From: a virus
Taxonomy: Duplodnaviria; Caudoviricetes
Length of the DNA stretch: 28,641 nt
Direction: 5' to 3' (one strand)
IMG/VR virus record: IMGVR_UViG_3300025141_000551
Coordinates: 1 to 28,641 of that record
Made by a program: the position numbers and the translations under genes. Below are positions 1 to 28,641 of the stretch, in pieces. Within the stretch, counting starts at the first letter, position 1, and every line of letters begins with the position of its first letter. Under the pieces are notes generated by a model. That model saw only the letters and a list, made by a program, of their open reading frames with translations, made no database searches and was not told where the DNA came from.

Positions 1-1352
1 CAATGTATTTATATAATCACTACTTCCCACAAATCCAGTATATCGCTGAGACTTTATGCGTTCCTCTGGCAACATATGTCAATGCTCCATCAAGTTATAT
101 TACCAAAATTTTACAAGGTAGGAGCTTGTTTGAGCAAGGCATAGTAACGCTTGATAGAAATAAAGAGCGTCACCCTCAGATATATAGAGCTGATAAAGGT
201 AACTATCAAGCAGCTCATATTGAATTATATAGACCGGGATTCCATCAGAAGAATGTAAAGGTAGACTTTAGTTCTTACTATCCTTCTATAGCTATGGCCT
301 TAAATTTAGGGCCAGATACTACACAAATTGTAGGTTATGATGAGTATAGTGATGAGGTAGAATTCAAAAATGACATACTTTACGTGCCTGATAACAAGGT
401 GGGTAAAAGACTAATGATTAAAATAGACCAGTCTAGGAAGAGCTGTCTATATAAAATGTGTCATGAATTTAAGGAAATGCGAAAGCCTTATAAGCTTGGG
501 TCTACGAAAGAAGATAAGAGCAAATCAGATGCTCTAAAAATAATGGTGAATACTTTCTATGGGGCAAATGCTAATCCTTATATCAGCTATGGTGATATGG
601 GCGTGGGTGTTACTATCACAGCGATTGCGAGGTGGTTACTCCTCTCCGGCGTTAATATTATCCGTAGCCGATATGGAGAAGATGCTGTGGTATATGTACA
701 CACAGATGGGATTAATACTAATGTGGATGTTGATGAGTTATGGTTGACAAACAGATTAAGGAGATTACTAAAACATGTTATTCCTGATGCTGAGCCGGAC
801 CATATATCGATGGATAAAGATTACTTTAAAGAAGGTGTTTGGTTACAAGTAGGAAACTATGCTTTAAGAAATGAAGATGGAAGTATAACAAAACATGGAA
901 GCACCTTCAAAGCTACATCACGTTCTAAATTTTATTTAACAGTGTTAGAGAAATTAATAGATGGTCGAATGAATAACGTTGTTAATACTAAGTTTATTGA
1001 TGACCTGTATTCTTTAGAAGCTTATACCTTAGATGATTTTATTATGAGAAAGTCTCAAGGTAGGGAGAAAAAGGATTACAAATCTGAGACTGACTTAATA
1101 ATGAAATTAATTGAACAAGGAGAACAAATAGGTATGACTCCTTCACAAGGAACCACTTACTACTATTGTAAGACTAATGAAGGATATAAACTTACAGATA
1201 CTATTAAAGATATAAATGAGATAGATATTCGTTACTACTGGGATACTATCACTACTCTCCTACAAAAGTTCAAATTAGATGAGTGGGTTCGTAAGAAGCC
1301 CCCTATTACAGTAGTAGATAAAAAACAAAAGAGTTTAATGGAATGGATATAA
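1..1352 (+). CDS. polB: Family B DNA polymerase, 5'-truncated by the window edge (palm/fingers/thumb plus C-terminal PIP box)
   Basis: Motif A DFSSYYPS (264-287), motif B KIMVNTFYG, motif C variant YVHTDG (693-710), NYAL...KHG thumb region. C-terminal QKSLMEWI (1326-1349) matches the archaeal QxxLxxW/F PCNA-interacting motif. The exonuclease domain is absent, so the ATG at 3 is probably internal. Confidence 0.93.
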   Translation, partial: MYLYNHYFPQIQYIAETLCVPLATYVNAPSSYITKILQGRSLFEQGIVTLDRNKERHPQIYRADKGNYQAAHIELYRPGFHQKNVKVDFSSYYPSIAMALNLGPDTTQIVGYDEYSDEVEFKNDILYVPDNKVGKRLMIKIDQSRKSCLYKMCHEFKEMRKPYKLGSTKEDKSKSDALKIMVNTFYGANANPYISYGDMGVGVTITAIARWLLLSGVNIIRSRYGEDAVVYVHTDGINTNVDVDELWLTNRLRRLLKHVIPDAEPDHISMDKDYFKEGVWLQVGNYALRNEDGSITKHGSTFKATSRSKFYLTVLEKLIDGRMNNVVNTKFIDDLYSLEAYTLDDFIMRKSQGREKKDYKSETDLIMKLIEQGEQIGMTPSQGTTYYYCKTNEGYKLTDTIKDINEIDIRYYWDTITTLLQKFKLDEWVRKKPPITVVDKKQKSLMEWI

Positions 1353-1739
1353 ATGGCGGCAAGGAAATATAAAGACCCCTTTGGTAGATTGTTCTACAAT
1401 GTTCAGAGAAGTGCAGCGAATGGTCCGAAAGGTTCAGCCCAAAAGATATTGGACCCTGACTATAAACCTCGTAAGATTGATTTCGATATAGAAGATTTAA
1501 AAGACATATGGTATAATCAACAAGGAGGTAAATGTTTTTGGTTGGGTATACCTTTGGAACCAGAATGGGTAAATGAATCATATCATCCCTTAGCCCTAAG
1601 CGTAGATAGACTAGAATGTGGAGGAGACTATGTTAAAGATAATATAGTTATATGTTCTAGATTAGCTAACATGGGGCGTAGTAAATACGATAAAGAGAAA
1701 TTTTCAGATGTTATTGGCTATCTTAAGGCAAATCTTTAA
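1353..1739 (+). CDS. His-Me finger (HNH/endonuclease VII-like, 'SxDR' variant) putative homing endonuclease
   Basis: QQGGKC...LSVDRL...YVKDNIVICSRLAN pattern typical of viral beta-beta-alpha endonuclease-like proteins; starts immediately after the polB stop. Confidence 0.65.
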   Translation: MAARKYKDPFGRLFYNVQRSAANGPKGSAQKILDPDYKPRKIDFDIEDLKDIWYNQQGGKCFWLGIPLEPEWVNESYHPLALSVDRLECGGDYVKDNIVICSRLANMGRSKYDKEKFSDVIGYLKANL

Positions 1740-1745
1740 ATACTA
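1728..1745 (+). promoter_or_regulatory. Putative archaeal promoter (TATA box TTTAAATA at 1735-1742)
   Basis: TTTAAATA overlaps the endonuclease stop codon and lies about 70 nt upstream of the next ATG, in one of the few intergenic gaps. Confidence 0.5.
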
Positions 1746-1810
1746 TAACGTCGTAAAACTAAAAGAGGACGGCCCGTCGGTCGCTCCCCTTCCCATAGGA
1801 GAATGAGAAA

Positions 1811-2005
1811 ATGGACGAAAATGATAAGAAACCGTTAGCAGCGCATTTAGATGCGGCAGAAGTAAAAATAGTCTGGCGAGAAGAAGAGAAAACGAAAGTT
1901 GGCAGAGGAATGATAACTAATGATGATGATAATTTTGTTTACCTCAAAGGTGAAAAGGGCACAGTCATAGTTAATAAGAAGGATATTATTGCCATAAAAC
2001 AATAG
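1811..2005 (+). CDS. Small Sm/Hfq-like beta-barrel protein (putative RNA-binding)
   Basis: 64 aa; VKIVW...GRGMITNDDDNFVYL...TVIVNKKDIIAIK resembles the Sm1/Sm2 pattern of Hfq/Lsm proteins; SD AGGAG at 1797-1801. Confidence 0.55.
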   Translation: MDENDKKPLAAHLDAAEVKIVWREEEKTKVGRGMITNDDDNFVYLKGEKGTVIVNKKDIIAIKQ

Positions 2006-2010
2006 TAAAC

Positions 2011-3534
2011 ATGACTGCCGAAGAGATATTACATACGGGTAACCCGTTACAACAAGGAAACATTTCTAAACAAATTCAGATTGATAGACCTTTAAAGGGG
2101 AAATTAAGGATAATGCCAATATCAGATAGCCCGTGGGCTCCTACTGGTTTTGGAACTAATACGAGAAATATAGGAGCTATTCTATATGGTGATGGTCATC
2201 GAATAGGATATGGTGGGTGTCAAAATTCAAGTCATGTAAAGTGGAGTACCCCATGGCCTTTGAGTCAAACAGAGACGTGGGCACATTTTGAAAACTTACC
2301 TATATTATTTCCCGGTCAAGAAAGGTTTGGAGAAAAATCTTTTCCTGAATGGGTTAGACAATATAGACCTGACGTTATATTAGCTCACTTAGACTTTCAA
2401 ATGTTTAGACATATAACTGATAGTAAAATGCCTACAGCAGTAAACTTTCCTTTAATAAATCAAAAAACAGGTAAGCTATTAAATAGGAAAGAAAGAACTG
2501 AGCTGATGAATAAAGCTTACAAAGAAGTTAATACTATAAAACAAAAGGGACCAAAGATAGCAGCTATTATACCCTTTGATGGAGAACCTTCTATACCTAT
2601 GTGGCAACAACAGATAGACAATATCGATTTTCCTGTAGCTATGTCTAGGTATGGACAACAAGGACTTAAACAAGATTTTAATTGTGATGCTAAATATATA
2701 CCACATGGTGTGGACACTGACTTATTTAAACCAATGTTAGCACCCAAGTATGGTAAAGAAAATTGTCCTAATGCGTTTATAGTAGGATGTGTAGCACGTA
2801 ACCAACATAGAAAAAATATACCACGTTTATTAAAAGGGTTTGGACAATTCGTTAAGAAGAGAAAACTATCCCCCGACCAAGCTAAACTTATATTACATAT
2901 GGATTGGAATGATGCGATGGGATGGGTATTCCCTGACTTTGCTAAACAATATGGTTTAGAAGAATATCTAATGCCTCCTCTAATGGGTAATTTAGATATG
3001 GGACAACACATAAGTGATGAAGATATGGCAAACCTATATAACTGTATGGATGTTTTTGTACTACCTACAGGTGGAGAAGGTTTTGGTATACCTACTGTTG
3101 AAGCTATGTCTTGTGGAGTTCCTATATGTGTAACTAATTACACTACAGGTTATGAGTTAATTAAATGTGATGACCCTGAGAATGAAAAGGTTCCAATGTA
3201 TCCGCTCGGTGGTAAGTGGGACGATGTTACACCTAATGGTAGAGACCATTTAGAAGAAGAAGATATATGCGAAAGAGGTATACTCTTACCATATAAGGAT
3301 ATGTGGTGGGATACTCCTAAGAGAGCAGCACCACAAAGAGCTTTATGTAGTGAACAAGCTATATGTGAAGCACTAGAATATTACTATGACAACCCTAAGA
3401 AAAGAGTTGCGGCAGGTAAAGCTGCACGTGCTCATGCTCTTAAAGAATATAGTTGGGATGTTATAGGAAAAAGATGGGTTGAATTCTTCAATGACGTTAC
3501 GTCGAAGATTAAACCAGTGAGGAAAAAGAAATGA
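2011..3534 (+). CDS. GT-B fold glycosyltransferase (GT4-like)
   Basis: SDSPWAPTGFG N-terminal loop, IPHGVDTDLFKP, VARNQHRKN, DVFVLPTGGEGFGIPTVEAMSCGVP (EX7E), YSWD at the C-terminus. Confidence 0.92.
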   Translation: MTAEEILHTGNPLQQGNISKQIQIDRPLKGKLRIMPISDSPWAPTGFGTNTRNIGAILYGDGHRIGYGGCQNSSHVKWSTPWPLSQTETWAHFENLPILFPGQERFGEKSFPEWVRQYRPDVILAHLDFQMFRHITDSKMPTAVNFPLINQKTGKLLNRKERTELMNKAYKEVNTIKQKGPKIAAIIPFDGEPSIPMWQQQIDNIDFPVAMSRYGQQGLKQDFNCDAKYIPHGVDTDLFKPMLAPKYGKENCPNAFIVGCVARNQHRKNIPRLLKGFGQFVKKRKLSPDQAKLILHMDWNDAMGWVFPDFAKQYGLEEYLMPPLMGNLDMGQHISDEDMANLYNCMDVFVLPTGGEGFGIPTVEAMSCGVPICVTNYTTGYELIKCDDPENEKVPMYPLGGKWDDVTPNGRDHLEEEDICERGILLPYKDMWWDTPKRAAPQRALCSEQAICEALEYYYDNPKKRVAAGKAARAHALKEYSWDVIGKRWVEFFNDVTSKIKPVRKKK

Positions 3535-3905
3535 ATTTAGTATTTGGAATGGATGGAGTGATTTCTACTCCGTGTAGAGTCTATGAAGACGTAGAAAGAA
3601 GTAAGCCTATCACTAACGCGAAAGAGTTTATGGATTGGCTAAGAGATAAAGGACATCATATAACTATATGGTGTAAAAGACCCAACAGTTTAGATTGGGT
3701 AATGGCTACTAAAGATTGGTGTAAAGCACATGAAATACATTATGATAGGTTAATATTTGATAGACCTTATAATGCAATTATGGTAACTGAAACACCAGCT
3801 AATGCAAAGTATTATAAACACGAGCGTGATTTGTCAATGGTAGCTGACATGTTCGAGGAGTGGACAAACGATGTTAGGAATGAATGGACCCATAGTAAAG
3901 ATTAG
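3531..3905 (+). CDS. Capless HAD-superfamily phosphatase-like protein with a degenerate active site
   Basis: LVFGMDGVI (DxDG with the first Asp replaced), GHHITIWCKR, TKDWC...IHYDRLIFDRP resemble small viral HAD proteins; ATGA overlap with the glycosyltransferase. Confidence 0.7.
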   Translation: MNLVFGMDGVISTPCRVYEDVERSKPITNAKEFMDWLRDKGHHITIWCKRPNSLDWVMATKDWCKAHEIHYDRLIFDRPYNAIMVTETPANAKYYKHERDLSMVADMFEEWTNDVRNEWTHSKD

Positions 3906-4176
3906 GTGGAATGATGCCGCCCAGCAAGTTAAAACTCATGCTGTAAACATAATGGAACCTGTAGAGAATCTCTCTATAGCAGAGAGTGTAGGTGAAATGA
4001 TAGCTAAAGATGATAAAGCAATTATATTAGTGAATCATTGGAATGATGTTGATGGTGTGGATATAGTAACGATACCAACAGATTGGTGTCAGGAGATAGA
4101 GGTTTTAAAGGAATGTATTACAGAGAATTCGGAATCCCAGCCAGAATTGGAAAGTGTAAAGACGTCGAAGAAATAG
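3871..4176 (+). CDS. Hypothetical viral protein with WxDA motif (possible Sm/SH3-like barrel)
   Basis: VKIRWNDA...SVGEMIAKDDKAIIL...TIPTDWCQEIEVL pattern common in tailed-virus small proteins; SD GAGGAG at 3855-3860; alternative start at 3880. Confidence 0.6.
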   Translation: MLGMNGPIVKIRWNDAAQQVKTHAVNIMEPVENLSIAESVGEMIAKDDKAIILVNHWNDVDGVDIVTIPTDWCQEIEVLKECITENSESQPELESVKTSKK

Positions 4177-5195
4177 AGAAATTCGTAGAACAATACAACG
4201 GTAAGAAGAATTGTTATGCGAGTGTCTATGTATTTGATGATGAGAAATTAAAAGCTGAAGGTAGAACTAACTACGAAACAGCTTTGTTAAACACTGTATG
4301 GTTTGATTTTGATGATAATAAGGATGTTAAAAAATGTTTAATGGATGTGAGAAGATTTATACGCCGGTTCTGCAAACCACTAAAGATTACCCCGAGGATA
4401 TATCTTACAGGGGGAAAGGGCTTTCAAATGAATATAGACTTTCATTCGCCAGTGGACTTACCGGCACACGTAAAGCGACAAGCTATACGAGAGTATTTGA
4501 AACACCTTAAGGTTAAATATTCCTTAAAGACGTTAGATGATATTTGTATAAATAATAGTGTCTCTTGTATGAGACGTATACCCAACACTGAGTATATCTC
4601 TAAGATTACTGGTGAAGGGACAGGCGTATGGTGTACTCAATTTAGTGTAGAAGAAATATTAAAGATGGGTATAGAAGAACTATACGCTATGGCACAGGAA
4701 GAGAATGAAAAAACTATTCCTCCTGAGCAAAGCACAAAAGCACAGAGAAACTTTGTGGAATTTGTGTGTGACATGTATGAAATAAAACATACTGTTTCTA
4801 ATAGTATAGCTTATTTATTGAATAAGATAGAAGAAGCAACAGGCTCTATTGAACTCTCTAGTAAGTCTCTATTGGGCAATGAATATATTAAGCCCCCTAG
4901 AAGATGCGTAGTAGAGCTAATAGAGAATAATATAAAGCGTGGACATAGCTCCCATGAGGAGAACAATGTCATCGCTTTCGAATTGGTGAATGGAGGGTGG
5001 TCTGATAGAGATATATCTTTTGTATTCAAGAGTATATATAATGAGGCCGCTGGAGATTGGGGCTGGTATACAGACGATTTAAATACCGCAGGGCGTCATA
5101 TAGAGTCAATTCGAGCGAAAGCTATAAATAGGTATTCAGTTGATAAGTTAATACAATTAGGAATATGCAAAGGAGATAAATGCCTTTGCACCTAA
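4113..5195 (+). CDS. Archaeo-eukaryotic primase, catalytic domain fused to a PriL-like C-terminal Cys domain
   Basis: N-terminal YYREFG, motif I WFDFD, motif II variant TGGKGFQ, motif III region LDD...RRIPNT; C-terminal PPRRC...H...YS...CKGDKCLC resembles the PriL C-terminal domain. ATG 4113 is preferred to the TTG at 4083. Confidence 0.85.
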   Translation: MYYREFGIPARIGKCKDVEEIEKFVEQYNGKKNCYASVYVFDDEKLKAEGRTNYETALLNTVWFDFDDNKDVKKCLMDVRRFIRRFCKPLKITPRIYLTGGKGFQMNIDFHSPVDLPAHVKRQAIREYLKHLKVKYSLKTLDDICINNSVSCMRRIPNTEYISKITGEGTGVWCTQFSVEEILKMGIEELYAMAQEENEKTIPPEQSTKAQRNFVEFVCDMYEIKHTVSNSIAYLLNKIEEATGSIELSSKSLLGNEYIKPPRRCVVELIENNIKRGHSSHEENNVIAFELVNGGWSDRDISFVFKSIYNEAAGDWGWYTDDLNTAGRHIESIRAKAINRYSVDKLIQLGICKGDKCLCT

Positions 5196-5207
5196 GGAAG
5201 TGATTAA

Positions 5208-5579
5208 ATGGCAAATTTAAAAAGAGTAGAGAAAAGACTAGAAAACGTCGAGGCATGGGTGAAGGAATTTGAAAAAGGCACTGGGCCTGTTCAAACAATG
5301 GACAATCTTAATTGGTTGGTAGGACAGTCACGTATGTTGGGAGAAAGATGCAATCAACATGAGAGCATGGTAACCCAATTACAACAAGCACTACAATCAA
5401 ACAATGAGATTCTCAATAAGTTCTTAGAAGAGAATGACATGGTTCATGATTGGAAAGGATTTATTGAAGAAATACAAAAGGAGAATCAAGAAAATGCCCT
5501 TCAAGAGCAAGAAGCAGAGAGCTTGGATGCACAAGAACAAGCCGAAGATGGCGAAGAAGTGGGAGAAGGAGACGCCTAA
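5208..5579 (+). CDS. Coiled-coil hypothetical protein with acidic tail
   Basis: Archaeal-type SD GGAAGTGAT upstream; heptad-like Q/E/L-rich sequence. Confidence 0.75.
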   Translation: MANLKRVEKRLENVEAWVKEFEKGTGPVQTMDNLNWLVGQSRMLGERCNQHESMVTQLQQALQSNNEILNKFLEENDMVHDWKGFIEEIQKENQENALQEQEAESLDAQEQAEDGEEVGEGDA

Positions 5580-5646
5580 AGGTCGTAAACTTCCCACCAA
5601 AGTCAAAAAGAAGAAAAAGGCGGGACGCCGCAAAAGGAAAAAGTGA
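5494..5646 (+). CDS. Small, very basic protein (MPFKSKKQRAWMHKNKP...)
   Basis: 50 aa, K/R-rich; MPFKS.KQR.W...N.P..AKKW type sequences recur in environmental tailed viruses; SD AGGAG at 5479-5483; overlaps the upstream gene by 86 nt. Confidence 0.75.
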   Translation: MPFKSKKQRAWMHKNKPKMAKKWEKETPKGRKLPTKVKKKKKAGRRKRKK

Positions 5647-5650
5647 TATC

Positions 5651-5830
5651 ATGGCTAAGAAAGAAGCAAGTAAAAAAGTCGTTGACGACAAACCAGCTGC
5701 TCAACCTAAGAAGGAAGTAGCTGTTGAACCTGTAGAAGAACATGCTGTTCAAGCAGGTGAAGAAATTATCGAGAGACTCGGTATGAAGTTCATCCGAAAT
5801 GTGGATGAAGGAACCATAAGGAGAATTTAA
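5651..5830 (+). CDS. 59-aa hypothetical protein (MAKKEASKKVVDDKPAAQPKKE...), not in the ORF track
   Basis: Translated by hand; GTGAT SD-like element upstream; fills the gap 4 nt after the previous stop. Confidence 0.75.
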   Translation: MAKKEASKKVVDDKPAAQPKKEVAVEPVEEHAVQAGEEIIERLGMKFIRNVDEGTIRRI

Positions 5831-5832
5831 AT

Positions 5833-5973
5833 ATGGGCGCATTAAAAAAATCAGTAAAAGCTGCCTCAAAGAAAACAGCAGCAACAAAGTCTGAATTTGA
5901 AGAGCGTATGGTCGGTGGACTTATGAGAAAAGTCAATAAGAAAACTGGCGAAATCGTAGAAACCCTCGAATAG
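5833..5973 (+). CDS. 46-aa basic hypothetical protein (MGALKKSVKAASKKTAATK...), not in the ORF track
   Basis: Translated by hand; SD AAGGAG at about 5818-5823; starts 2 nt after the previous stop. Confidence 0.75.
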   Translation: MGALKKSVKAASKKTAATKSEFEERMVGGLMRKVNKKTGEIVETLE

Positions 5974-6063
5974 ATGGGGGTTTTAACCTCTCTAAGTCGC
6001 TGTAAGTGTAGTCCCGATGAGGATTGCACTTGCGGCAAAAGAGTATTAAGAGATTATAAATGA
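5974..6063 (+). CDS. 29-aa Cys-rich microprotein (CxC-x5-CxC), not in the ORF track
   Basis: MGVLTSLSRCKCSPDEDCTCGKRVLRDYK; ATG directly follows the previous TAG, and its TGA overlaps the next ATG (ATGA). Confidence 0.55.
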   Translation: MGVLTSLSRCKCSPDEDCTCGKRVLRDYK

Positions 6064-6248
6064 CAATAACTAAAGCAGAATTGTTAAGTGATATAGAATC
6101 TACAATATCTACTGCAACAACTAACCTAAACTCAGTATTAAATACAGGAAGTATAAGCACTGAAGCAGATAAGAATAAAGCATATGAATACATATTCACA
6201 ATCAATGCAATGACAGAAAGAAAAACGTGGATTGAAGCGAATTTATAA
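6060..6248 (+). CDS. 62-aa hypothetical helical protein
   Basis: ORF coupled to the upstream micro-ORF and ending before the promoter-like gap. Confidence 0.7.
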   Translation: MTITKAELLSDIESTISTATTNLNSVLNTGSISTEADKNKAYEYIFTINAMTERKTWIEANL

Positions 6249-6252
6249 TTTT

Positions 6253-6285
6253 AGAAAAAGGCTTTTATAGGAGCCTATCCTATAG
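6253..6285 (+). promoter_or_regulatory. Putative BRE/TATA promoter of the RNR gene with overlapping inverted repeats
   Basis: GAAAAAG followed by TTTTATAG (6263-6270); TATAGGA-N5-TCCTATA (6266-6284); SD AGGAG before ATG 6314. Confidence 0.55.
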
Positions 6286-6313
6286 TAATGAACCGCAAAA
6301 GGAGTGGTAAAGA

Positions 6314-8179
6314 ATGTTTAAAAATAACGTAGCAGAATTTATATATAAGAGAACATATTCTCGATGGATTGAAGAAGAAGACAGGCGTGAAGATTGGCCT
6401 GAGACAATAGAAAGATTTATTAGTTTTGTAATTTCAGAAAGACCTGAGATTCCAGAAAAGACAATTAACAAGATAAGAAAATATATGACAGAGTTTTCCG
6501 TAATGCCCTCAATGAGATTTTTATGGGCAGCAGGTCCAGCAGCTAAGGCTGACAATACCTGTATTTATAACTGCTCCTTTGCTAAGATAAACTCTGTGGA
6601 GGCATTCGCTGAATGTCTTTATATACTCATGTGTGGAACTGGTTTTGGTTTTTCTGTAGAAAAAGAAGAAGTGGAAAAATTACCTGAAGTACCAGCAATA
6701 AAATCTGGTAGAGCTTTAGCTAAAATAGTTATAGATGATTCTAAAGATGGTTGGGCAGATTCAGTTAAAACACTTATGAACAGTCTATATGATGGACAAA
6801 ACATTTATTTTGATTATAGTGGAATAAGATTAGAAGGAGCTCGCCTTAAAACAATGGGTGGTAGAGCATCTGGTCCATCACCACTAATTAAACTGCATGA
6901 CTTCATTCGTGAAACCATGCACAATGCGCAAGGTCGAAAGCTCACAACTTTGGAGGCTCACGATATCTGTAATCAAATTGCTGAGATTGTAGTGGTGGGT
7001 GGAGTTAGACGCAGCTCACAAATCTCTTTGAGTGACCTTGATGATAAAGAAATGCGTCATGCAAAGGAATGGCCTTTCCCTATTAAAAGAGCTATGGCTA
7101 ATAACAGTGCTATATTCAGGGAGAAGCCTTCCGCTGCTCAATTTTTAAAAGAATGGGCAGCTTTAGCTTTGTCTGGAACAGGAGAGCGTGGTATATTTAA
7201 TTTAGAAGCCGCACAAAACAAAGCTCCTTCCAGACGTTACGCTCCTCTTATTCAGGGAACTAATCCCTGTGGAGAAATAATGTTGCGGGATATGGAATTC
7301 TGTAACCTTTCAGAAGTAGTAGTTAGAGAAGATGATGACTTAGATTCATTGTTGGACAAAGTGGAGACAGCTACGTGGCTTGGTGTTATACAAAGTTCGT
7401 TCACCTATTTTCCTTACCTCAGAAAAGAGTGGAAAAAGAATTGTGACGTAGAAGCGCTTCTAGGCGTTAGTTTGACCGGTCAGATGGATAACCCCTCGGT
7501 TCTCACTTCGGACGCGTTAAAGGCCCTTAAAAGCCGTGTTTTGCGCATTTCTCGCAAGGCATCAGGAATACTAGGAACTAAAATGCCAGCAGCGACCACT
7601 TGTGTGAAGCCATCAGGAACTGTCAGTCAACTTGTGGACTCTGCATCAGGAGTACATCCTCGCTATTCTCAATACTATATTCGTCGTTATAGAATTGCAG
7701 CCCGTGACCCATTATTTGCTTTATTAAAAGATGCAGGAATAAAATGTAATCCTGAAGTAGGACAGACAAAGACGAATGCATCTACATGGGTTTTAGAATT
7801 CCCAGTTAAATCTCCTGAAGGTTGTATAACCAGAAAGGATGTAACAGCTTTAGACCAACTAAGACATTATAAAAACTTACAACATAACTGGTGTGAACAT
7901 AACGCCAGTATGACTGTGTATGTCAGGGAAGATGAATGGTTTGAAGTAGGTAATTGGGTTTACCAGAACTGGGATATTATTAATGGGGTATCATTTTTAC
8001 CTTATGATGGTGGTAAATATGAGCTCGCTCCATATGAAGAAATTGATGTACATTCCTACGAAAGGCTTATAAAGACCCTACCCCTAATTAACTATACACA
8101 ACTGTCGCATTATGAGCAACAGGACAATACTCAAGGTAAAGGTGAGTATGCTTGTGCTGGCGACAAATGTGAAATTTAA
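6314..8179 (+). CDS. nrdJ: Class II adenosylcobalamin-dependent ribonucleotide reductase (monomeric RTPR-like)
   Basis: RTYSR, PSMRFLW, YNC, GTGFGFS, VVVGGVRRS, TNPCGEI, CNLSE, KPSGTVSQL and the C-terminal redox pair CAGDKCEI; no ATP-cone. Confidence 0.95.
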   Translation: MFKNNVAEFIYKRTYSRWIEEEDRREDWPETIERFISFVISERPEIPEKTINKIRKYMTEFSVMPSMRFLWAAGPAAKADNTCIYNCSFAKINSVEAFAECLYILMCGTGFGFSVEKEEVEKLPEVPAIKSGRALAKIVIDDSKDGWADSVKTLMNSLYDGQNIYFDYSGIRLEGARLKTMGGRASGPSPLIKLHDFIRETMHNAQGRKLTTLEAHDICNQIAEIVVVGGVRRSSQISLSDLDDKEMRHAKEWPFPIKRAMANNSAIFREKPSAAQFLKEWAALALSGTGERGIFNLEAAQNKAPSRRYAPLIQGTNPCGEIMLRDMEFCNLSEVVVREDDDLDSLLDKVETATWLGVIQSSFTYFPYLRKEWKKNCDVEALLGVSLTGQMDNPSVLTSDALKALKSRVLRISRKASGILGTKMPAATTCVKPSGTVSQLVDSASGVHPRYSQYYIRRYRIAARDPLFALLKDAGIKCNPEVGQTKTNASTWVLEFPVKSPEGCITRKDVTALDQLRHYKNLQHNWCEHNASMTVYVREDEWFEVGNWVYQNWDIINGVSFLPYDGGKYELAPYEEIDVHSYERLIKTLPLINYTQLSHYEQQDNTQGKGEYACAGDKCEI

Positions 8180-8190
8180 GGAGAAATAAT

Positions 8191-8367
8191 ATGGCAAATT
8201 ACGCAGTAGATGATTTTACCGACAGCGCCCAGTCGATGGCAGACTTACTAGCTCTATTAGAAACTAAATTAGAGACTATAACTAACACCAAGACTATACG
8301 CTTGTTAGAAGTATATAAAGATGCAACCAATGGCGGATATAGTTACGCCTTAATTGTGGACGCATAA
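8191..8367 (+). CDS. 58-aa hypothetical protein (MANYAVDDFTDSAQSMADLL...), not in the ORF track
   Basis: Translated by hand; strong SD AAGGAG at 8178-8183; fills the gap between nrdJ and the ORF at 8370. Confidence 0.8.
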   Translation: MANYAVDDFTDSAQSMADLLALLETKLETITNTKTIRLLEVYKDATNGGYSYALIVDA

Positions 8368-8369
8368 AT

Positions 8370-8633
8370 ATGCCTTTCGCAACAGATATTACTGGCTATG
8401 GTCGTAAAATGGGCCGAGACGCAGGACTTGATGATGAAGGTAGAGCACTATCAGTTATCAAATTACAAGGAGAGCGAATGCCAGAAGGTACAATCACTTT
8501 TAGAACCATAAACCCATCCAATACAGAATCAGCTGGTGGAATTGGAGATGTAGGAGACTATGCTCCAACCAGTGCACGTTCAGGATTCTACGGTGATGGA
8601 GCTACAGGTAATCCAAGAAATAAAGGTAATTAG
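8370..8633 (+). CDS. 87-aa Gly-rich hypothetical protein
   Basis: Starts 2 nt after the previous stop; its stop overlaps the stop of the convergent - strand gene. Confidence 0.7.
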   Translation: MPFATDITGYGRKMGRDAGLDDEGRALSVIKLQGERMPEGTITFRTINPSNTESAGGIGDVGDYAPTSARSGFYGDGATGNPRNKGN

Positions 8634-18796: not shown

Positions 18797-21700
18797 TATG
18801 CTACTCCTGCGAAGGTATCTACTTTGAACTTACTTCGCCCTGCTGTGAATTTACCAACATGTAAATTTTGAACATTTAAGCTGGCTCCTGCATTAGCTTG
18901 ATTAGCGTGAACACCAGCATCGAGCTGGTTCCTTAATATATTATTGGTCCTACTATTATTTATAATTTGCCCTGATTGGTTAGGTGTAAAGAGTTCTGGA
19001 CCCTGTTCTCCAACTAAATATGAGCCTCCCATGCTTCCATATCCACCATTTGCCATAGCAGTAACATAACCACCATACTGACGGCCGGCCCTATTTACTA
19101 GAGGGTCTGTTCCAGTGGTGGTATCAGCAGCAGCAGCAACTGCTGCTATATCAAATGTAGGCCATGAACCTAAAGTAATTTTTTCATTGTAACCAGCCCA
19201 TCCCCAGCCTTCGCCTCCTATTCCGGGAACCCAATCAGGTGCTTCAAAACTAAAACCACCTATATCAATTTCCATCTCAATATTGGACATCATGGTAGCC
19301 ATAGCATTCCAAGCTGTTTTAAATGCATCTATACCAAATATAGCAGTTAAACTCACTGCATTTTTTAAACTTGCTGCAATACCTAAAAGTTTATCAGGAA
19401 GTTCCTCGATGAAAGTGAGAATACTACCAAACATTTCAGTACCAAAATCTAGAGCTGATGCGAAGGTATCTAACACAACCTGACCACCATTCCACCAAGT
19501 TACTAATTCCGCAAATCTGTCCTCCCACCACGTAAGAGTCATCCATCTTAACCATCCCTCTTCCGAGTCAAATAATTTAGTCCATAAGCTTGAGAATCCA
19601 CTAACAATAGCATCAATTATTACACTATTACCTATATAATACATAACTACATCATAGATATTTTTAAATACATCTGATACAAGATATAACATATAACCGA
19701 AAACTCCACCAAGTCTCATGGCTATATCCATTCCTACCCTCTTTATTGAGAAACCTAAATCAGACATAGCGTCTTTAGCATATTGAACAAAACCACCCCA
19801 CAAATAACCTAAATATCCTAAGCTTTTTCCTTGTTGTGCAGTTATTAATTCTATTTCTACCATCCACATAATCAAACCATCAAAAAGTCCACCCAAATTA
19901 TTCCAAAGCTCTACGACCCCATTTTTAAAGTCTACAAACATTTGTTTTATAGGTTCAAATATACCCATAAGTTGAACTCCCCATGCAACAAAAGCAGCAA
20001 TAGCGGCCACAATAATTACAACAACAGCAACAATAGCTCCTACCATAGTACCTAGAGCTGCTACTACATAACCAATACCGGTATATAAAGTTTGTAAGGC
20101 CATTGCCATTTTTCCTACTTTAGCCGCACCTGAACCTGCCGTTTTACCAATTTTAGCTGCATCTTTGGCTTTACCAGCCTTACCATACTTAGCAGCATTC
20201 TTTTTAGCATTTTTACCATAGTGATATCGTTTTTTACCAGTCTTATCTACTGATTTATATCCACCCTTAGTTTTTTCCATGGATGGTGTAACACCACCAC
20301 CTCCCATTCCGGGTGGTGCTCCTCCAACTACAGGTAAACTCTCTCCAGCTGCTTCTGCTCCTGCTTCTGCCGTGGCTGCTTGAGTTGCTACACCACGAGC
20401 CCCTGCTAATTCTAATTCTGAAGCAGCAAGAGCTTGATTTACCCCAACTTCTGTTGTTTTAGCAGTAATATTATTTACAACAGCTTCGGTTTCCTCTTCA
20501 GTAGCCTTTTCAGCTGCAAAAACCCATGTATATAAAGCCATCATTCCAGCTACAGTAGCCCTTAAACCAGCTGTAAGACTGAATAATTTATTTAACATTG
20601 TAAATTGTATTACTAGACTAGTAGCTCTAGGCCCTAACCAGTCAATAGCTTTCATTAATACTTTAATTGGTAACAAATAAGCTTTGAGTACGCCAATCGC
20701 TGTTTTACCTTCTCCAGAGAATTCAGCAAGGAATTTTATACCATCCTGTATAAGCACTGTTAATTCTCTTACTGCTTCAACTGCCACTTGTTGTATAGTT
20801 TTACCAAACTCTGTTAATTGTTTATTACCTTCTTCTCCCTCTACTAATAGGTCTTGAAGCCCTGTTATTCCATCAATAATAGCACTATGAAACTCATTCA
20901 TAGCTCCATTAGCTCTTTCTACTCCATCTGACATAAAGAAGAGCATCTGAACATTATTTTTCAAAATTTGAATTTGAGCAGACATAGATTCATTCTGAAT
21001 CCTAACCATCTCATCTAACTCTCCACCAGCATTTTCTACATTTTTAACAGCTTCACCAAATTCATCTGCATTTTGCACTAAGTGAACGAAAGCAGTAGCA
21101 CCACGAACATTCAAGTCTTCAATAAGGCCCGTTAACAGTTCAGTATTGCTTGCGGCTTCGGGCCCAATGATATCTGAATATTCCTTAGCTATTACAGTCA
21201 AATCCTTCATAGAGCCATCTGCTTCTCTAATTTCTAGACCCATTCTAGCGAATGCAGCCGTATTATCGTCAGCGTGCTCAGCAAACTCAGCGAGAGCTTG
21301 CCTTAGACCACGACCTGCGATACCTGCTTCGAGTGCACGGTTGGTTAATATTTCCAACGCACCCAGTAATTGGTCAACAGATTGACCTGTAGCAGTAAAG
21401 AAAGGCATTGCGAATTTAACAGCACTGGATAAATCTTCGTATTCAATCAAAGATTTCTGAATAACATGTGCGAACTTATCTGTTATTTCAGCTGCTTGTT
21501 CCATTTCCATTCCGAAACCCATTATAGTCTGTGTAGTTAATTTAGCTATAGTATTGTGGTCTCCCTGAACAGCCATAGATAATTTGAGTGTTTCAGGTAA
21601 TACCTTAGCAGCATCATTAGCGCTTAAACCAGCCGATGCTAATTGATAAAGACCTTCCGCTCCATTTTGCATCTCCATTCCAAAAGATTGACCAAATTGA

Positions 21701-22854
21701 GTAATAACGTTACTTGTTTCATATAATTCCTTACGAGTTAGATTGAACACAGAGTTTGCATTCATTAATTCTCTTTCAAATTCTACTAATTCTTGAGTAT
21801 TTTGTTGTAATTTATAAAACATAGCAGTGAGAGCAGATATAGATTCTCTCAGAGCATTTTGGAAGTTGTTTTTCAAAGCTTCAGCAAATTGAGCTGTCTT
21901 ACGTGCTGCATGTTCTGCACCCCGTGCTAACTCTTTGATAGCCTCTTCTTCTCCTTTTATAGCTCTCGTCATTAAATCAGTAAGGTCTTTCTCATCTCTG
22001 ACCATATCCTGATATTCAGCATCCCATGCACTATATGCTTCATTATAATCCCTTATACCTTCATCGACAAAGGTATAGAAATTACGAGCTGCATCTACAT
22101 TATCTTTAAATCCTTGTTGTTCTGCGTCAAGAAGTGCTATAGATTCTCTATGAGCATCAGCACCTATTTGACCTGTTTTGAGTAACCATTCAGTCTTGGT
22201 TCTCATCATCTTGATTTCTTCCATTCCATAATCTCTTCTACGCGTAGCATTATCTAATTCTAATTTAGCTATACGCTGAAGTTCTTTTCTATTCTTGTCT
22301 CCTTCTTTTCCAGTGTCCCACATTACATCTGACAATTTACCCATGTCAAATTTACCAATTTCTCTTTGAGCCTTTTCTAAATCTTCATGGTCGAATAATT
22401 TAATAAAAAGGTCTGGAGAACGCTGTTTAACATGAGCAGCAAAATCTTGAAAAGCTCTTTTTCCTGCTTTAAAAGTATTCTCTAATTGTTTAGTGGTCTT
22501 TGCTGTACCCAATGCTTTTTGTGTTTTTACAAAAGCTTTTTGTGTTTTACCAGCCACCATTTTAGCTCCCATATTAGTTTTGTTCATAGAGGCTTCAAAC
22601 TTCTTTTGCCCCTGTAACATCTGGGATTGTAAATTTTTACGATGGTTTTCTATCTTACTTCGTACAGCATTTAATTCAGTTTCAGTTTGTTTAGTACGTT
22701 TTTTAGCTTGCTGGACCTGCATGCTATTCATCTTTTTATATAGAGCTGCGGCTCCTGCGCCAATTATTTGACTTGCTTGGCCCATGGCTTGTTTTGAAGG
22801 CATAGCTAAACCAATAGCTACCCTTGCTGCAAATACTTGTCCAGCGAAACCCAT
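18796..22854 (-). CDS. Tail tape measure protein (TP901-like core)
   Basis: AEGLYQLASAG, DKFAH, AGIAGRGLR core; hydrophobic segments; C-terminal ANGG...YLVGEQGPELFTP motif; located after the chaperone pair. Confidence 0.93.
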   Translation of the reverse strand: MGFAGQVFAARVAIGLAMPSKQAMGQASQIIGAGAAALYKKMNSMQVQQAKKRTKQTETELNAVRSKIENHRKNLQSQMLQGQKKFEASMNKTNMGAKMVAGKTQKAFVKTQKALGTAKTTKQLENTFKAGKRAFQDFAAHVKQRSPDLFIKLFDHEDLEKAQREIGKFDMGKLSDVMWDTGKEGDKNRKELQRIAKLELDNATRRRDYGMEEIKMMRTKTEWLLKTGQIGADAHRESIALLDAEQQGFKDNVDAARNFYTFVDEGIRDYNEAYSAWDAEYQDMVRDEKDLTDLMTRAIKGEEEAIKELARGAEHAARKTAQFAEALKNNFQNALRESISALTAMFYKLQQNTQELVEFERELMNANSVFNLTRKELYETSNVITQFGQSFGMEMQNGAEGLYQLASAGLSANDAAKVLPETLKLSMAVQGDHNTIAKLTTQTIMGFGMEMEQAAEITDKFAHVIQKSLIEYEDLSSAVKFAMPFFTATGQSVDQLLGALEILTNRALEAGIAGRGLRQALAEFAEHADDNTAAFARMGLEIREADGSMKDLTVIAKEYSDIIGPEAASNTELLTGLIEDLNVRGATAFVHLVQNADEFGEAVKNVENAGGELDEMVRIQNESMSAQIQILKNNVQMLFFMSDGVERANGAMNEFHSAIIDGITGLQDLLVEGEEGNKQLTEFGKTIQQVAVEAVRELTVLIQDGIKFLAEFSGEGKTAIGVLKAYLLPIKVLMKAIDWLGPRATSLVIQFTMLNKLFSLTAGLRATVAGMMALYTWVFAAEKATEEETEAVVNNITAKTTEVGVNQALAASELELAGARGVATQAATAEAGAEAAGESLPVVGGAPPGMGGGGVTPSMEKTKGGYKSVDKTGKKRYHYGKNAKKNAAKYGKAGKAKDAAKIGKTAGSGAAKVGKMAMALQTLYTGIGYVVAALGTMVGAIVAVVVIIVAAIAAFVAWGVQLMGIFEPIKQMFVDFKNGVVELWNNLGGLFDGLIMWMVEIELITAQQGKSLGYLGYLWGGFVQYAKDAMSDLGFSIKRVGMDIAMRLGGVFGYMLYLVSDVFKNIYDVVMYYIGNSVIIDAIVSGFSSLWTKLFDSEEGWLRWMTLTWWEDRFAELVTWWNGGQVVLDTFASALDFGTEMFGSILTFIEELPDKLLGIAASLKNAVSLTAIFGIDAFKTAWNAMATMMSNIEMEIDIGGFSFEAPDWVPGIGGEGWGWAGYNEKITLGSWPTFDIAAVAAAADTTTGTDPLVNRAGRQYGGYVTAMANGGYGSMGGSYLVGEQGPELFTPNQSGQIINNSRTNNILRNQLDAGVHANQANAGASLNVQNLHVGKFTAGRSKFKVDTFAGVA

Positions 22855-24895: not shown

Positions 24896-24914
24896 ACTAT
24901 CTTTTCTCCTTTAT

Positions 24915-24985
24915 TTGTCTAGACAACATTGCGAACATTTCACTCGACTATTTTTATATACTCAAGTCTAGTATATAAAGCTTAT
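24915..24985 (-). promoter_or_regulatory. Putative late promoter for the tail tube genes, inside a TATA-containing inverted repeat
   Basis: TTTATATACT-N7-AGTATATAAA (24953-24979) and the perfect palindrome TTGTCTAGACAA (24915-24926) in a 107-nt intergenic gap. Confidence 0.6.
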
Positions 24986-25002
24986 GCTCCTTCGTACTAT
25001 TT

Positions 25003-27192
25003 TTAAGCACCAACTTCCTTATATTTTCGACCTGCGGCTCCACCTGCACCAGCTCTACCAGCCCTAATGAATGGAAGTGTCCACTGTAAAACCTCTTGTC
25101 TTCCACTTGATGTCTGGTTAGCCCAAGGACTATTATCTTCAAAAAACTTTCTATTTCCTTCCCATTTATTGGCTTCAGAACGAGTCTTCCAATGTTGTTC
25201 TCCAGCAGACATTTTCTTTTTCATATTTGCCATAAAATCTCCACTACCCCCCATATTTTCCTTAATATTGGCCATAATCTTAGCATTAAGTGCAGCAATT
25301 ATATCTCTATTACCCTTTACACCTACTTCTACATGAGGAGCTATACTCGTAAGTTCTCTTAATAACATGTCTCCTTCTAATTGTTTTCCTAATAATTTAT
25401 CAATGGCTGCATTTCTATAATATTCATCCATCATTTGTTGTCTTAATCGATTATCTCTATAATCTTGCCATTTAGTATCATTAGCAAACATTGCACTACC
25501 TACTAAATCTATAAAGAATCTATTACCATCACGCATTGCGAGAGTTACTGGGTCAGAAAATGTAGCTCCTCCTTGGTCAATAACCCAATTCCATGAAACT
25601 AAATATTCTTTATTTTGTTTGGCTACATAAAAGGGGGCTACAAATTCAAAACCAGTTCCTTCTCCACCCATCATCATAGCGTCTATTAAACGTACAGCAG
25701 TTTGTCTAGCCTGAAATGTTGCTCCCATATCTACATTAGCACCAAATCCATCCTTTCCTTCCTTTACACCCTCCATTTCTAATTGACCTGCTACTATATT
25801 CATTCTTTGTGCTATATCTCTAGTTTCAAATCCTAATTCTTCAAATGCATTATTAATCATATCTGCTTGTAGTTGATTGAAATCTGTAATAATTTTTACA
25901 GCAGTTTTAACATCTGGAACTGTGGTTTTAAATCCTTCCGCTGCAAAAGCGGCTGAATATCCTCCTTTTTTGTAAAGACTAGCAGCAGTAACTTCAACAC
26001 CTACTGATGAATTTTGTTCTAATTGTACTAATTTCTTTAAATCTCTACCAGCTGCATTATCTAATGACCTTAAAGTATAAACCAAATCACCTTCAGCTCC
26101 TTGTGTTGATATATCAACATTCTGACGATTACCTTTTGAAAATGTTCTAGCATATTCTTTAGGTAAAGCACCTACCTTACTACCCTTTAAGAACTGTTGG
26201 TTTTTGTTTAAATCTCGTTCACCCCATTTTCTCATTAATTCTGGATTATCTATACCTATCCTAGCTGCTTCTCCGTCCTCTGTTAATTTATTACATAAAA
26301 TACCTATACCCAATTCTTCTGGAGATTCACCACCGTAATTTACTCCTTCAGTTACAGGATTTTTATTTATTGTGGGGTCTGATTCAGCATCTGCATAAAT
26401 TTCAGAGATATCATCAAGTATAGATTCTTGGAAGGCTTTAGATGCTTGCGCTAAGAATCCTCTACTAGGTAACCATGCAGGATTACTACCAAATGTTTTA
26501 CCTGTACCTCCTACTAATTTACTTAGAGGGGCTTTAAATGGTAATTCTCTCCATAAATCTTTAGGACCATCTGAGGTAGGATAATCCAACATACTTTCTG
26601 GTTGAGTTAAATTTCTATCATTAACAGAGAGTTTTTCGAGTAACTCATGTAAATTATCAAATTTATCTAAGCCACCAAAAGTTTCAGCAGATTCTCTCCA
26701 GTTATTAGGTTTAATAACACCTCCTTTTGAACCAGTTCCTGCTACAGTCATCTTACCTATTGTTTTACTCATAGCATCCCAAGTTCTGCTTGCCCTAAAA
26801 GCAAACGGTTGTTTAGCACCAGCCTGAGGATGTAAACTACGCAAGTTAACTAACCATGAAGCAACATTACCTCCATATAACCAATGAACATAAGGTAATA
26901 ATACATCTGTAACATAACCTTCTCGCCCTTCTCCTGCGTTAACAGAACTATCTTTCTTTAAAAAATCAAAAGCTTCAGTTCCACCTATAGAAGGACCCCA
27001 TTCTAAATAACTATCATCACCTTCGGAAAATACAGATGTACCGGGATTCTCAGAGAAAATATAATCTGATGCCTTATTAAACTGTTCAATTTTACTTTGT
27101 GCCATAAAGGGTACATATCCCATCATCACCTGTCTATAAACATTCTGTCCTTGACCACGTTGAAACTTATTAGGTAATGTCCACTTAGCCAT
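25003..27192 (-). CDS. 729-aa protein of unknown function in the neck/tail module
   Basis: Long ORF coupled to the tail terminator gene; no motif recognised. Confidence 0.8.
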   Translation of the reverse strand: MAKWTLPNKFQRGQGQNVYRQVMMGYVPFMAQSKIEQFNKASDYIFSENPGTSVFSEGDDSYLEWGPSIGGTEAFDFLKKDSSVNAGEGREGYVTDVLLPYVHWLYGGNVASWLVNLRSLHPQAGAKQPFAFRASRTWDAMSKTIGKMTVAGTGSKGGVIKPNNWRESAETFGGLDKFDNLHELLEKLSVNDRNLTQPESMLDYPTSDGPKDLWRELPFKAPLSKLVGGTGKTFGSNPAWLPSRGFLAQASKAFQESILDDISEIYADAESDPTINKNPVTEGVNYGGESPEELGIGILCNKLTEDGEAARIGIDNPELMRKWGERDLNKNQQFLKGSKVGALPKEYARTFSKGNRQNVDISTQGAEGDLVYTLRSLDNAAGRDLKKLVQLEQNSSVGVEVTAASLYKKGGYSAAFAAEGFKTTVPDVKTAVKIITDFNQLQADMINNAFEELGFETRDIAQRMNIVAGQLEMEGVKEGKDGFGANVDMGATFQARQTAVRLIDAMMMGGEGTGFEFVAPFYVAKQNKEYLVSWNWVIDQGGATFSDPVTLAMRDGNRFFIDLVGSAMFANDTKWQDYRDNRLRQQMMDEYYRNAAIDKLLGKQLEGDMLLRELTSIAPHVEVGVKGNRDIIAALNAKIMANIKENMGGSGDFMANMKKKMSAGEQHWKTRSEANKWEGNRKFFEDNSPWANQTSSGRQEVLQWTLPFIRAGRAGAGGAAGRKYKEVGA

Positions 27193-27194
27193 GC

Positions 27195-27683
27195 TTATCT
27201 AAAATTCTCGAAACTAACACCCATCGTAGCAGTAGCTCCCCATAGTTCTAAATCAGCATTATAAGCTACATCAGAAAAACCATTATAATTTCTTTCTATA
27301 ATTTGTACCTTAGTAGCATCAAAAGATAAATCCATGAGACTATTTGCCACATTGAGCATAGCCCAATTTAATAACCTCCTTTGTTTATATACTTCTGTAG
27401 AACTACCACCATCGGGGGTGATACTCTTAGAAGAAGTTTTATCTACTATAACGTGAAATCTAAACGCAAGGCCATATATCTCTCCTGTTTTATCACTACC
27501 ACCAAATGTAGCGTTCTGTCCATAAAACTGAGTATCTGAACCATTAGCAAGTTGTTCTACTATAATACATGGATAAGAAACATCTATAGCTTCTGGATAT
27601 TGTCCATATACAGTAAAACCAGAAAAGTCTGTTCTAAGCTGGTCTATAATAGCGCGTTCTATAGTATTAATAAAATCAGCCAT
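27195..27683 (-). CDS. Tail terminator/tail completion protein
   Basis: 162 aa; AIIDQLR...VYGQYP...YPCIIVE pattern typical of lambda gpU/SPP1 gp17-like proteins; position in the module. Confidence 0.7.
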   Translation of the reverse strand: MADFINTIERAIIDQLRTDFSGFTVYGQYPEAIDVSYPCIIVEQLANGSDTQFYGQNATFGGSDKTGEIYGLAFRFHVIVDKTSSKSITPDGGSSTEVYKQRRLLNWAMLNVANSLMDLSFDATKVQIIERNYNGFSDVAYNADLELWGATATMGVSFENFR

Positions 27684-28641
27684 ATGCCCTCCTTAGTGAA
27701 TCTCTCCTACCTTTAGTTCTTACACAATTAAATATAATATAGCCGTCAGTCATGTCTTTTAAAGAATGAACATGCCATGATATAGACTTATAATATTCTA
27801 TACCTCTAATCATAACAGTATTACCCTTAGTTCCATCTACACTGAGTTCAAATCTTTCAAAAGGGTTTTCTTCGTTCCAAGCAGAACCACTAGCCATAGT
27901 TAGTGCTGTTCTAGTACCAGCCTTATATATACTAGTACCATCATCTATACTTCCACTCCCAAATGGAACATCTACTGTTAACCAGCTACCTGTAGGTATA
28001 GTTAAAGTACTTCCTGTAGTATAGGTAAGTTTATCATTAGCAGTAGTACCGCTCTGATAAGAACTAAAATTCATAAGCGCTATATTGCTTGCTCCACTAC
28101 CCTTTATTTGGAAGCGTAATCTATCTGCTTCTAGAACATTCTGAGCACTAGCACTATAGTAAAATGTGCCATTCGTATCATCACCGAATGTAGCTGTAAT
28201 AGTTTGCCCATCAGAGGTAAACTCCATATCAGCTGTGCCTGATGCCCATCCAGTTGTGCCAGACGTAGGAACGCTATATATAGTTCTATTGTTAACTATT
28301 AATCTATCCCAACCTTCTATCTCATTAAAATCAGTATTATTATCTTGGTCGAAATTAGGCATATTCTTTATAGTTTCTAAATTAGGAGTATAAACTCTAG
28401 CAGCTCCTATAATATTACCACCTGCTTTTTCAATTTGATAATCCGCAGTAACAGCAGGTCTAATAATAGCTGGTAAGTTGGGCATTAACATCTCACTACC
28501 ACTAACTACGCCTGTTGAAACTCCATAATTATCTTTACCATAAATGGGTGGTCTATGATAAGTGACATATTGAGCCTGTTCTGTTCTATATCTTAAAGCA
28601 CGAAAGACTCTGTTCATATTCAAAGCGCCCGGACGGACACC
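27676..28641 (-). CDS. Head-closure (stopper)-like protein with an inserted jelly-roll/carbohydrate-binding-like domain; probably 5'-truncated
   Basis: VTYHRP...KDNYG...ARVYTP...DRLIVNN [insert] WHVHSL...IFNCVR stopper-like pattern; the frame stays open to the window edge (GVRPGALNM). Confidence 0.6.
   Translation of the reverse strand, partial: GVRPGALNMNRVFRALRYRTEQAQYVTYHRPPIYGKDNYGVSTGVVSGSEMLMPNLPAIIRPAVTADYQIEKAGGNIIGAARVYTPNLETIKNMPNFDQDNNTDFNEIEGWDRLIVNNRTIYSVPTSGTTGWASGTADMEFTSDGQTITATFGDDTNGTFYYSASAQNVLEADRLRFQIKGSGASNIALMNFSSYQSGTTANDKLTYTTGSTLTIPTGSWLTVDVPFGSGSIDDGTSIYKAGTRTALTMASGSAWNEENPFERFELSVDGTKGNTVMIRGIEYYKSISWHVHSLKDMTDGYIIFNCVRTKGRRDSLRRAYG

Follow-up and report, generated by a model that had tools for sequence, protein, structure and literature searches.

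The stretch of DNA analyzed here, referred to as the window, comprises the 28,641 nucleotides (1-28641) of the virus record IMGVR_UViG_3300025141_000551. This fragment makes up about 40% of the genome of a tailed archaeal virus and lies wholly inside an overlapping record, G001. The subject of this analysis is the absence from this DNA of two short words, GATC and CCWGG (W, A or T), and the synonymous codon choice by which they are avoided. A direct count over the window returned no CCAGG, no CCTGG and no GATC, and 14 CCSGG (S, C or G). All 14 CCSGG are in-frame Pro-Gly pairs, 10 written with CCC and four with CCG. An initial annotation, made from the letters alone, had listed these 14 pairs, and each was found at exactly the position given; its report that CCWGG and GATC are missing and CCSGG is tolerated agrees with the count.

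The window opens in the C-terminal part of a gene for a family B DNA polymerase (PolB; 3-1352, plus strand; PF00136, E 2.5e-12), a protein of 739 aa in the overlapping record. Its Pro-Gly pair is CCG-GGA (234-238, plus strand), and the same column in relatives has CCG 14 times, CCC nine times and CCW never. Within the coordinates of a GT4-type glycosyltransferase gene (2011-3534, plus strand; PF00534, E 8.9e-14) lies a CCC-GGT pair (2311-2315, plus strand; column in relatives: CCC 7, CCG 14, CCW 0). A 370-aa protein (4083-5195, plus strand) had a library match only to phrog_9660, of unknown function; from its motifs we take it to be probably an archaeo-eukaryotic primase. The B12-dependent (class II) ribonucleotide reductase (RNR) gene (6314-8179, plus strand) served as the clade marker. 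Between the replication genes and RNR there is a small, very basic open reading frame (ORF) of about 54 aa (5482-5646; MPFKSKKQRAW...).

The other pairs are on the minus strand. They comprise CCC-GGC at 9606-9610 in a 350-aa gene (8630-9682), CCG-GGC at 10207-10211 and CCC-GGT at 11884-11888 in a 1044-aa gene (9663-12797), and five CCS-GGN pairs at 14844, 15372, 15567, 16206 and 18441 (span 14844-18445) in a 2006-aa gene (12776-18796). The tape measure protein gene (18796-22854, minus strand; PF10145, E 3.8e-25) holds two CCC-GGA pairs (19223 and 20309), and a 729-aa gene (25003-27192) holds CCC-GGT at 27041-27045. The last pair, CCG-GGC at 28628-28632, is near the start of a 5'-cut gene, for which G001 gives an ATG start just upstream, and is conserved in relatives. 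The 1044-aa and 2006-aa proteins had no Pfam or PHROG match; they adjoin the tape measure gene and are likely tail parts, and the 1044-aa protein opens with what we take to be a PKD-like motif.

The codon choice at Pro-Gly is specific to its context. Outside Pro-Gly, the prolines of the window are 287 CCW and 46 CCS (Fisher p=5.4e-12 against the Pro-Gly set), so that Pro is mostly CCA or CCT elsewhere, as had been stated. Nor are CCC and CCG equally favored before non-Gly codons, as evidenced by the prolines preceding G[ACT] codons (82 CCW vs. 9 CCS). As the null model, synonymous codons were shuffled 500 times within the 23 window genes. The shuffles gave 17.9 expected CCWGG (minimum 11) and 63.4 expected GATC (minimum 49), against none of either in the window. 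Among its 5-mers, CCAGG/CCTGG was the most depleted (z -5.65; runner-up, z -2.49). The expected CCWGG divide among the reading frames as 11.9, 4.1 and 1.9. Pro-Gly is therefore the largest of three reading frames purged of CCWGG; the initial annotation was right about the recoding of all 14 pairs, but Pro-Gly is only one of the frames in which the word was removed. The virus and its close relatives lack both words because each affected codon has been replaced by a synonym.

The avoidance is not limited to exactly these two motifs, as had been proposed. In the 55.7 kb of coding sequence of the window and the overlapping records G001 and G013, CTGCAG (23.4 expected), CAATTG (15.9 expected), TTGCAA (14.6 expected) and GGTACC (8.1 expected) did not occur, and all four are absent from the window itself. 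A degenerate target, YTGCAR, was ruled out because CTGCAA and TTGCAG are present 11 times each. AGCT, GGCC, GCGC, CCGG, GGWCC and GCWGC occur in the window at normal frequency. Contigs of four public runs match long pieces of window positions 1-9000 with 0-3 differences, and this agreement excludes an assembly artefact. Taken with the shuffles and the relatives, they led us to reject chance, composition or assembly as the cause of the missing words. The window sequence was found in seawater and marine plankton metagenomes, with 19 entries from six named studies holding at least half of its words, two of them possibly the source itself.

We then counted the words across related viral genomes. 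Searches with PolB and RNR returned 84 loci, 76 of them from the clade; the loci overlap and hence are not independent. GATC was absent from all 76 and CCWGG from 75, and eight distant RNR loci (44-54% identity) contained GATC in 8/8 and CCWGG in 6/8. Among the 13 records counted whole or nearly so, five of them over 60 or 80 kb only, GATC was zero in every record and CCWGG in 12, the exception being G031 with eight (30 expected). A core pool of 181 loci (about 1.66 Mb after repeat removal), which leaves out the deep-branch records G031 and G050-G054, dropped after their counts were seen, contained 0 GATC vs. 4677 expected, 0 CCWGG vs. 1766 and 787 CCSGG vs. 636. At 95% nucleotide identity, the 47 near-full RNR genes fall into 39 clusters, with a median pairwise identity of 78%, and the context-dependent purge spreads over about that number of clusters.

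The deep-branch records left out of the pool all lack GATC as well and vary in the other words. G050 has 25 CCWGG (63 expected) and no CATG (201 expected), whereas G051 has no CCWGG and likewise no CATG (220 expected). There is one CCWGG each in the 4-5 kb of G052 and G053 and none in the 4 kb of G054. CCWGG is therefore kept in four deep-branch records, G031, G050, G052 and G053. CATG is just partly depleted in the core clade, and CTGCAG is missing from 10 of the 13 records, with G020 and G026 having it at normal frequency. The additional words lost are palindromes of 4 or 6 bp, and they differ among lineages. In short, the purge is nested, with GATC lost always, CCWGG nearly always, and other palindromes by sub-lineage. 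A PolB tree built by a quick method, with the base of the ingroup unresolved, places G020 beside G031, G052 and G053, and G051 beside G050. This suggests at least two changes of the CCWGG state in the deep branch, and the tree gives no direction for them.

Two of these relatives had further features. The 31-kb G031 (loci L089 and L090) carries two divergent replication modules in opposite orientation, with two PolB, two 490-aa proteins and two methylases, which may reflect a chimeric assembly; an IMPDH/GMP reductase and a DNA ligase are encoded there as well. A contig of 10.9 kb from a virus of this type (NZMJ01000097.1, locus L085), with an aIF-1A 74% identical and neither GATC nor CCWGG, is filed in a Maricaulis metagenome-assembled genome (MAG), where it is probably mis-binned.

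We also considered whether viral methylases account for the sites that are kept. N4/N6 methylases are present in 2/49 records and in 3/5 deep records (carriers G020, G031, G050, G051 and G054). G031 and G050 keep CCWGG and have a methylase, yet G020 and G051 have related methylases and no sites, and so a link between methylase and CCWGG is not supported. The same explanation for kept CTGCAG is unsupported, since G026 keeps 24 without a methylase match. G050 (L354-L356) and G051 (L357-L360) share an SPPY-type N4/N6 methylase gene adjoining a RecU gene. In a search of the 49 viral records, 10 of them at least 90% complete and G050-G054 lying outside it, no C5 methylase (PF00145) was found and no Dam-family match (PF02086) exceeded the cut-off.

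Homologous positions in the relatives indicate how the words were lost. Seven genes were aligned over 27-51 sequences, and 14 columns had Pro-Gly at least three times. At these columns, 126 of 126 Pro-Gly pairs are CCS (71 CCC, 55 CCG). At the eight columns in which Gly is sometimes replaced, the proline is then CCW in 73 of 86 cases. In six pooled records (295 kb coding), CCSGG occurs 161 times vs. 69 expected, which is where the lost CCWGG resurfaces. The products expected of deamination are not enriched in these records (CCTAG/CTAGG 0.78, CCAAG/CTTGG 0.92, GATT/AATC 1.02), which argues that the purge is due to selection. Nine synonymous exit tests in the virus gave an odds ratio (OR) of 0 in all but the ATT:ATA balance test (1.04), and Asp before a codon starting with C was GAC 895 times and GAT never. 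We conclude that the purge is selective, acts in all frames, depends on context and is not deamination decay. Pro-Gly is also scarce among the dipeptides of 11 pooled records, where it ranks last of 377 (259 vs. 546 expected). Four small AT-rich control loci are low in it too (20 vs. 33.9), phage CRP-7 has 33 pairs (38 expected) and candidate-host genes have 484 (478 expected). Avoidance at the amino-acid level is likely real, but it is poorly controlled and is not claimed here as a result.

Judged from its genes, the virus is a marine tailed archaeal virus of 67-81 kb that is magrovirus-like. PolB and a head-tail module (capsid, portal, terminase, tape measure) are present between the window and G019, a complete 67-kb relative with terminal repeats that has capsid, portal, terminase, an AAA and VWA pair and collagen-like fibers. 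Long, Gly-Pro-rich collagen-repeat proteins occur in G019 (L096-L097) and in G041, which has 173 Gly-Pro pairs vs. just 28 Pro-Gly, all 28 CCS. The overlapping record G001 also encodes an archaeal translation initiation factor, aIF-1A (L001:8221-8544, upstream of the window), an archaeal-type Hsp20, RecU and a squalene/phytoene synthase-like protein (L001:2196-2798), the last being present in G019 too. In all, 36 viral loci carry aIF-1A. An integrase was not matched in the G019 ORFs scanned (48 of the 57 ORFs of at least 90 aa by Pfam, 38 by PHROGs). Clamp, MCM and RadA had no match in G019 by a Pfam scan, and magrovirus replisome genes call for profile-profile searches for detection (PMC5434244).

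By description, the virus resembles the Magrovirales family Krittikaviridae (group E, Velanvirus; PMC11706807, PMC12451623), with which it shares a tailed marine genome of 67-81 kb, PolB, terminase, CobT-VWA and GT4. Velanvirus has GroEL in these sources, and chaperonin was found in 12 of 26 original magroviruses; in contrast, none of 22 records of the present clade has a chaperonin, 11 of them being at least 90% complete. On the same descriptive comparison, aIF-1A, RecU, Hsp20 and the class II RNR are differences from Krittikaviridae, and the term "initiation factor" had no match in the covered text of the magrovirus papers PMC11706807 and PMC5332604. The likeness in size, CobT-VWA and GT4 is by description only, and we do not place the virus in this family.

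To look for candidate hosts, the viral aIF-1A profile was compared with cellular sequences. Its best cellular matches look like Thermoplasmatota proteins. A search with one of these retrieved 80 marine contigs that carry aIF-1A, Rio1 and an archaeal KH gene; their GC content of about 35-43% fits Marine Group III better than Marine Group II. Going by these genes, the hosts would be marine Poseidoniia archaea. A genome scan for the host gave no match with the single aIF-1A, and with the aIF-1A alignment it matched only the viral-type contig in the Maricaulis MAG. The candidate-host DNA keeps both words, at 0.74 (GATC) and 0.90 (CCWGG) of the codon-shuffle null, and writes Pro-Gly as CCW 336 times vs. 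CCS 57 times.

The same 80 loci (L130-L209) were examined for C versus T at synonymous sites in a stratified test over 64 palindromic and 256 four-base contexts. They are one chromosomal neighborhood in related genomes, and so their z values overstate independence. With an OR of 0.30 (z -12.7), GAT[C] ranked first in the palindromic as well as in the four-base set; C[C]WGG took third place in the palindromic set (OR 0.50; CCSGG 1.04, AG[C]T 0.82). The GATC effect was present in three GC groups (OR 0.22-0.34); that of CCWGG was weaker (0.53-0.69 over the GC groups) and absent in some single loci. GATC was under-used through all six of its exits (OR 0.30-0.71), indicating that part of the effect is selection or codon-pair bias. 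By the same measure, E. coli, which has Dam, shows no skew at GAT[C]>T (OR 0.95), in contrast to the strong skew of the candidate host.

SMRT (single-molecule real-time) sequencing reads 5-methylcytosine (m5C) poorly. Published data show GATC modified across marine archaeal MAGs (PMC8919816). Euryarchaeota GATC calls were 14-51% at quality values (QV) of 43-78, and two high-coverage MAGs were also called m5C (34-35%), while in three Thaumarchaeota 91-99% of GATC was N6-methyladenine (m6A) at QV 141-247. The same source has a C5 methylase in 6/27 Euryarchaeota MAGs, at only 20-35% identity to known enzymes (for example CM1200mP32_11970 and CM15mP78_600), and a 30% match to an m6A GATC methylase in 1/27. 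A second source lists CCWGG as unique to viral MAGs, with CGCG, GGTAG and TCGCGA for MGIIA (PMC9516812). The host DNA and these data point weakly to cytosine-5 marks and make a Dam-type m6A mark at GATC in the host doubtful. The initial annotation had supposed stable host systems for both motifs. The stability of the purge across a lineage and the skew of both words in the candidate host agree with this, but the Dam-type part of that proposal is in doubt, given the skew at GAT[C]>T and the weak, partly m5C calls.

We favor, with a probability of about 0.55, the explanation that GATC and CCWGG were purged since the hosts, which we infer to be marine Poseidoniia, cut both words with putative type II-like restriction enzymes that probably use m5C as the self-mark. 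Progeny from a host without the system, or incompletely methylated progeny, would be cut on entering a host with the system. A single site would cost enough for the count to stay at zero, and shorter-lived systems in host sub-lineages could produce the patchy extra purges of CTGCAG, TTGCAA, CAATTG and CATG. We prefer type II enzymes because a survey traces the great bulk of such avoidance to orthodox type II systems (PMC6286503), and because of the patchy palindromes and the self-avoidance of GATC by the host. Several points weigh against this explanation. If every host had the system, progeny would be methylated and selection weakened, so that patchiness or under-methylation must be assumed. 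A restriction endonuclease was annotated in 0/30 archaeal MAGs, whose completeness is 0-92% and mostly far from complete, and CCWGG was called in no archaeal MAG among the material covered (PMC8919816). The link to the host is drawn from the best cellular matches of a single 107-aa gene, and these matches carry no taxon labels. At 0.5, the CCWGG skew of the host does not exceed the E. coli background (0.58 at [C]CWGG, 0.66 at G[C]GC). The skew at the E. coli Dcm site is in the other direction (OR 9.9), which leaves the m5C test without a working positive control. Moreover, the candidate host has a skew at G[C]GC (0.44; 0.16-0.44 over all exits), yet the virus keeps GCGC at normal frequency.

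A possible but less probable alternative is a methyl-directed defense. Conserved host methylases would mark the viral progeny at both words, and the marked DNA would be cut or sensed by other strains or systems, such as type IIM or type IV enzymes or a complementary pair like DpnI/DpnII. Self-methylation would then be useless, and deletion of the word would be the sole escape. The idea draws on the missing restriction endonucleases in MAGs whose GATC is modified, on the apparent lack of viral self-methylation and on the DpnI precedent (PMC4687349). None of the 49 viral records has a C5 methylase or a Dam-family match over the cut-off, though relatives do acquire N4/N6 methylases, whereas haloviruses methylate or purge GATC (PMC8651126). 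GATC avoidance accompanies DpnI-like enzymes in 38/42 hosts and 45/46 phages (PMC4687349, PMC6286503). However, we saw no methyl-dependent nuclease, avoidance of type IV sites was found in 0/13 host genomes (PMC4687349), most phage cases are orthodox type II (PMC6286503), and the patchy 6-bp palindromes resemble ordinary type II targets.

It is also conceivable, though unlikely, that no defense nuclease is involved and that host methylation, or a protein that repairs or binds DNA at these words, as in MutH-like nicking or replication blocked by a bound methylase, lowers the yield enough for the words to be selected out. Counter-selection of GATC by mismatch repair has been cited for enterophages (PMC4687349), in T5-like phages the avoidance of Dam and Dcm methylation does not depend on restriction (PMC10644984), and the 0/30 MAGs with an annotated endonuclease would be expected. 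A mild cost in yield suits depletion better than a count of 0 out of about 6400 expected sites, and it leaves unexplained the lineage-specific total loss of CATG, CTGCAG, CAATTG and TTGCAA. Mutational decay, in which host C5 methylation of viral DNA would drive C-to-T loss without selection, is highly improbable. The candidate-host CCWGG does show such a pattern (cytosine exits about 0.5; Pro CCW:CCS exit 0.96). In the virus, however, m5C deamination is refuted by the surplus of CCSGG, the homologous proline columns and the synonymous exits. At Pro-Gly, the virus has gone from A/T to C/G at a middle base that is not methylated, contrary to the AT bias, and neither the absence of GAT before C-codons nor the unenriched deamination products fit decay.

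Restriction by type II-like enzymes, our preferred explanation, can be compared with known systems. EcoRII and MvaI are specific for CCWGG, and Sau3AI for GATC with an m5C mark. The words purged here are the same two that these enzymes and the E. coli orphan methylases Dam (Gm6ATC) and Dcm (Cm5CWGG) recognize. E. coli lacks a GAT[C]>T skew, and at C[C]WGG its skew is in the other direction. The candidate-host pattern is closer to a Sau3AI-type cytosine mark, with no homologues identified. Complementary DpnI/DpnII systems would give moderate avoidance of GATC in the host and strong avoidance in the virus (PMC4687349), as seen here; unlike in those systems, no such genes were seen and the mark looks more like m5C than m6A. 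Haloarchaeal tailed viruses have either a phiCh1-like Dam with GATC or neither (Liu et al. 2021, PMC8651126), and the present virus is likewise without both. Unlike there, no member that methylates and keeps GATC was found in the present clade (0/49 records with a Dam-family match over the cut-off), and CCWGG is purged too.

Restriction-site avoidance is known in non-temperate dsDNA viruses of prokaryotes (Rusinov et al. 2018, PMC6286503), in which short palindromes are similarly eliminated from a lytic-type dsDNA virus, and about one tenth of the surveyed genomes eliminate a site completely or almost so. In those cases the host enzyme is known, whereas here host and enzyme are deduced and the purge holds without exception in about 39 species-level clusters. 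We found no description of the purge in magroviruses in the literature covered, which includes parts of PMC11706807, PMC5332604, PMC10160649 and PMC5434244 and has most subscription papers outside its scope; the term "restriction" had no match in the covered text of PMC11706807. Site avoidance is old and well surveyed, which makes the window alone ordinary. The purge is probably the established way of evading host enzymes that cut DNA, carried through completely over dozens of species, and this strategy is already known from archaeal tailed viruses (PMC8651126); the present case is new and very clean.

An abundant group of marine archaeal viruses is under absolute selection against two words, yet the published archaeal MAGs list no restriction endonuclease and the long-read methylomes no CCWGG mark. 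As a doubtful speculation, marine Poseidoniia might carry cytosine-5 methylation at both words throughout the lineage, faint in SMRT data and set by a divergent C5 methylase, and enforced by an unrecognized defense that makes one site lethal to the virus. The viral genomes would then read out the methylome of their uncultured hosts, and the clade, which retains AGCT and whose aIF-1A most resembles that of a low-GC lineage, may be a family of viruses that infect Marine Group III and not Group II archaea. For Poseidoniia genomes, the finding names two precise target words, and a divergent C5 methylase as a candidate to look for. The nested purge sets, with GATC lost everywhere, CCWGG in most lineages and CATG, CTGCAG and TTGCAA in sub-clades, could help to pair uncultured viruses with host lineages.

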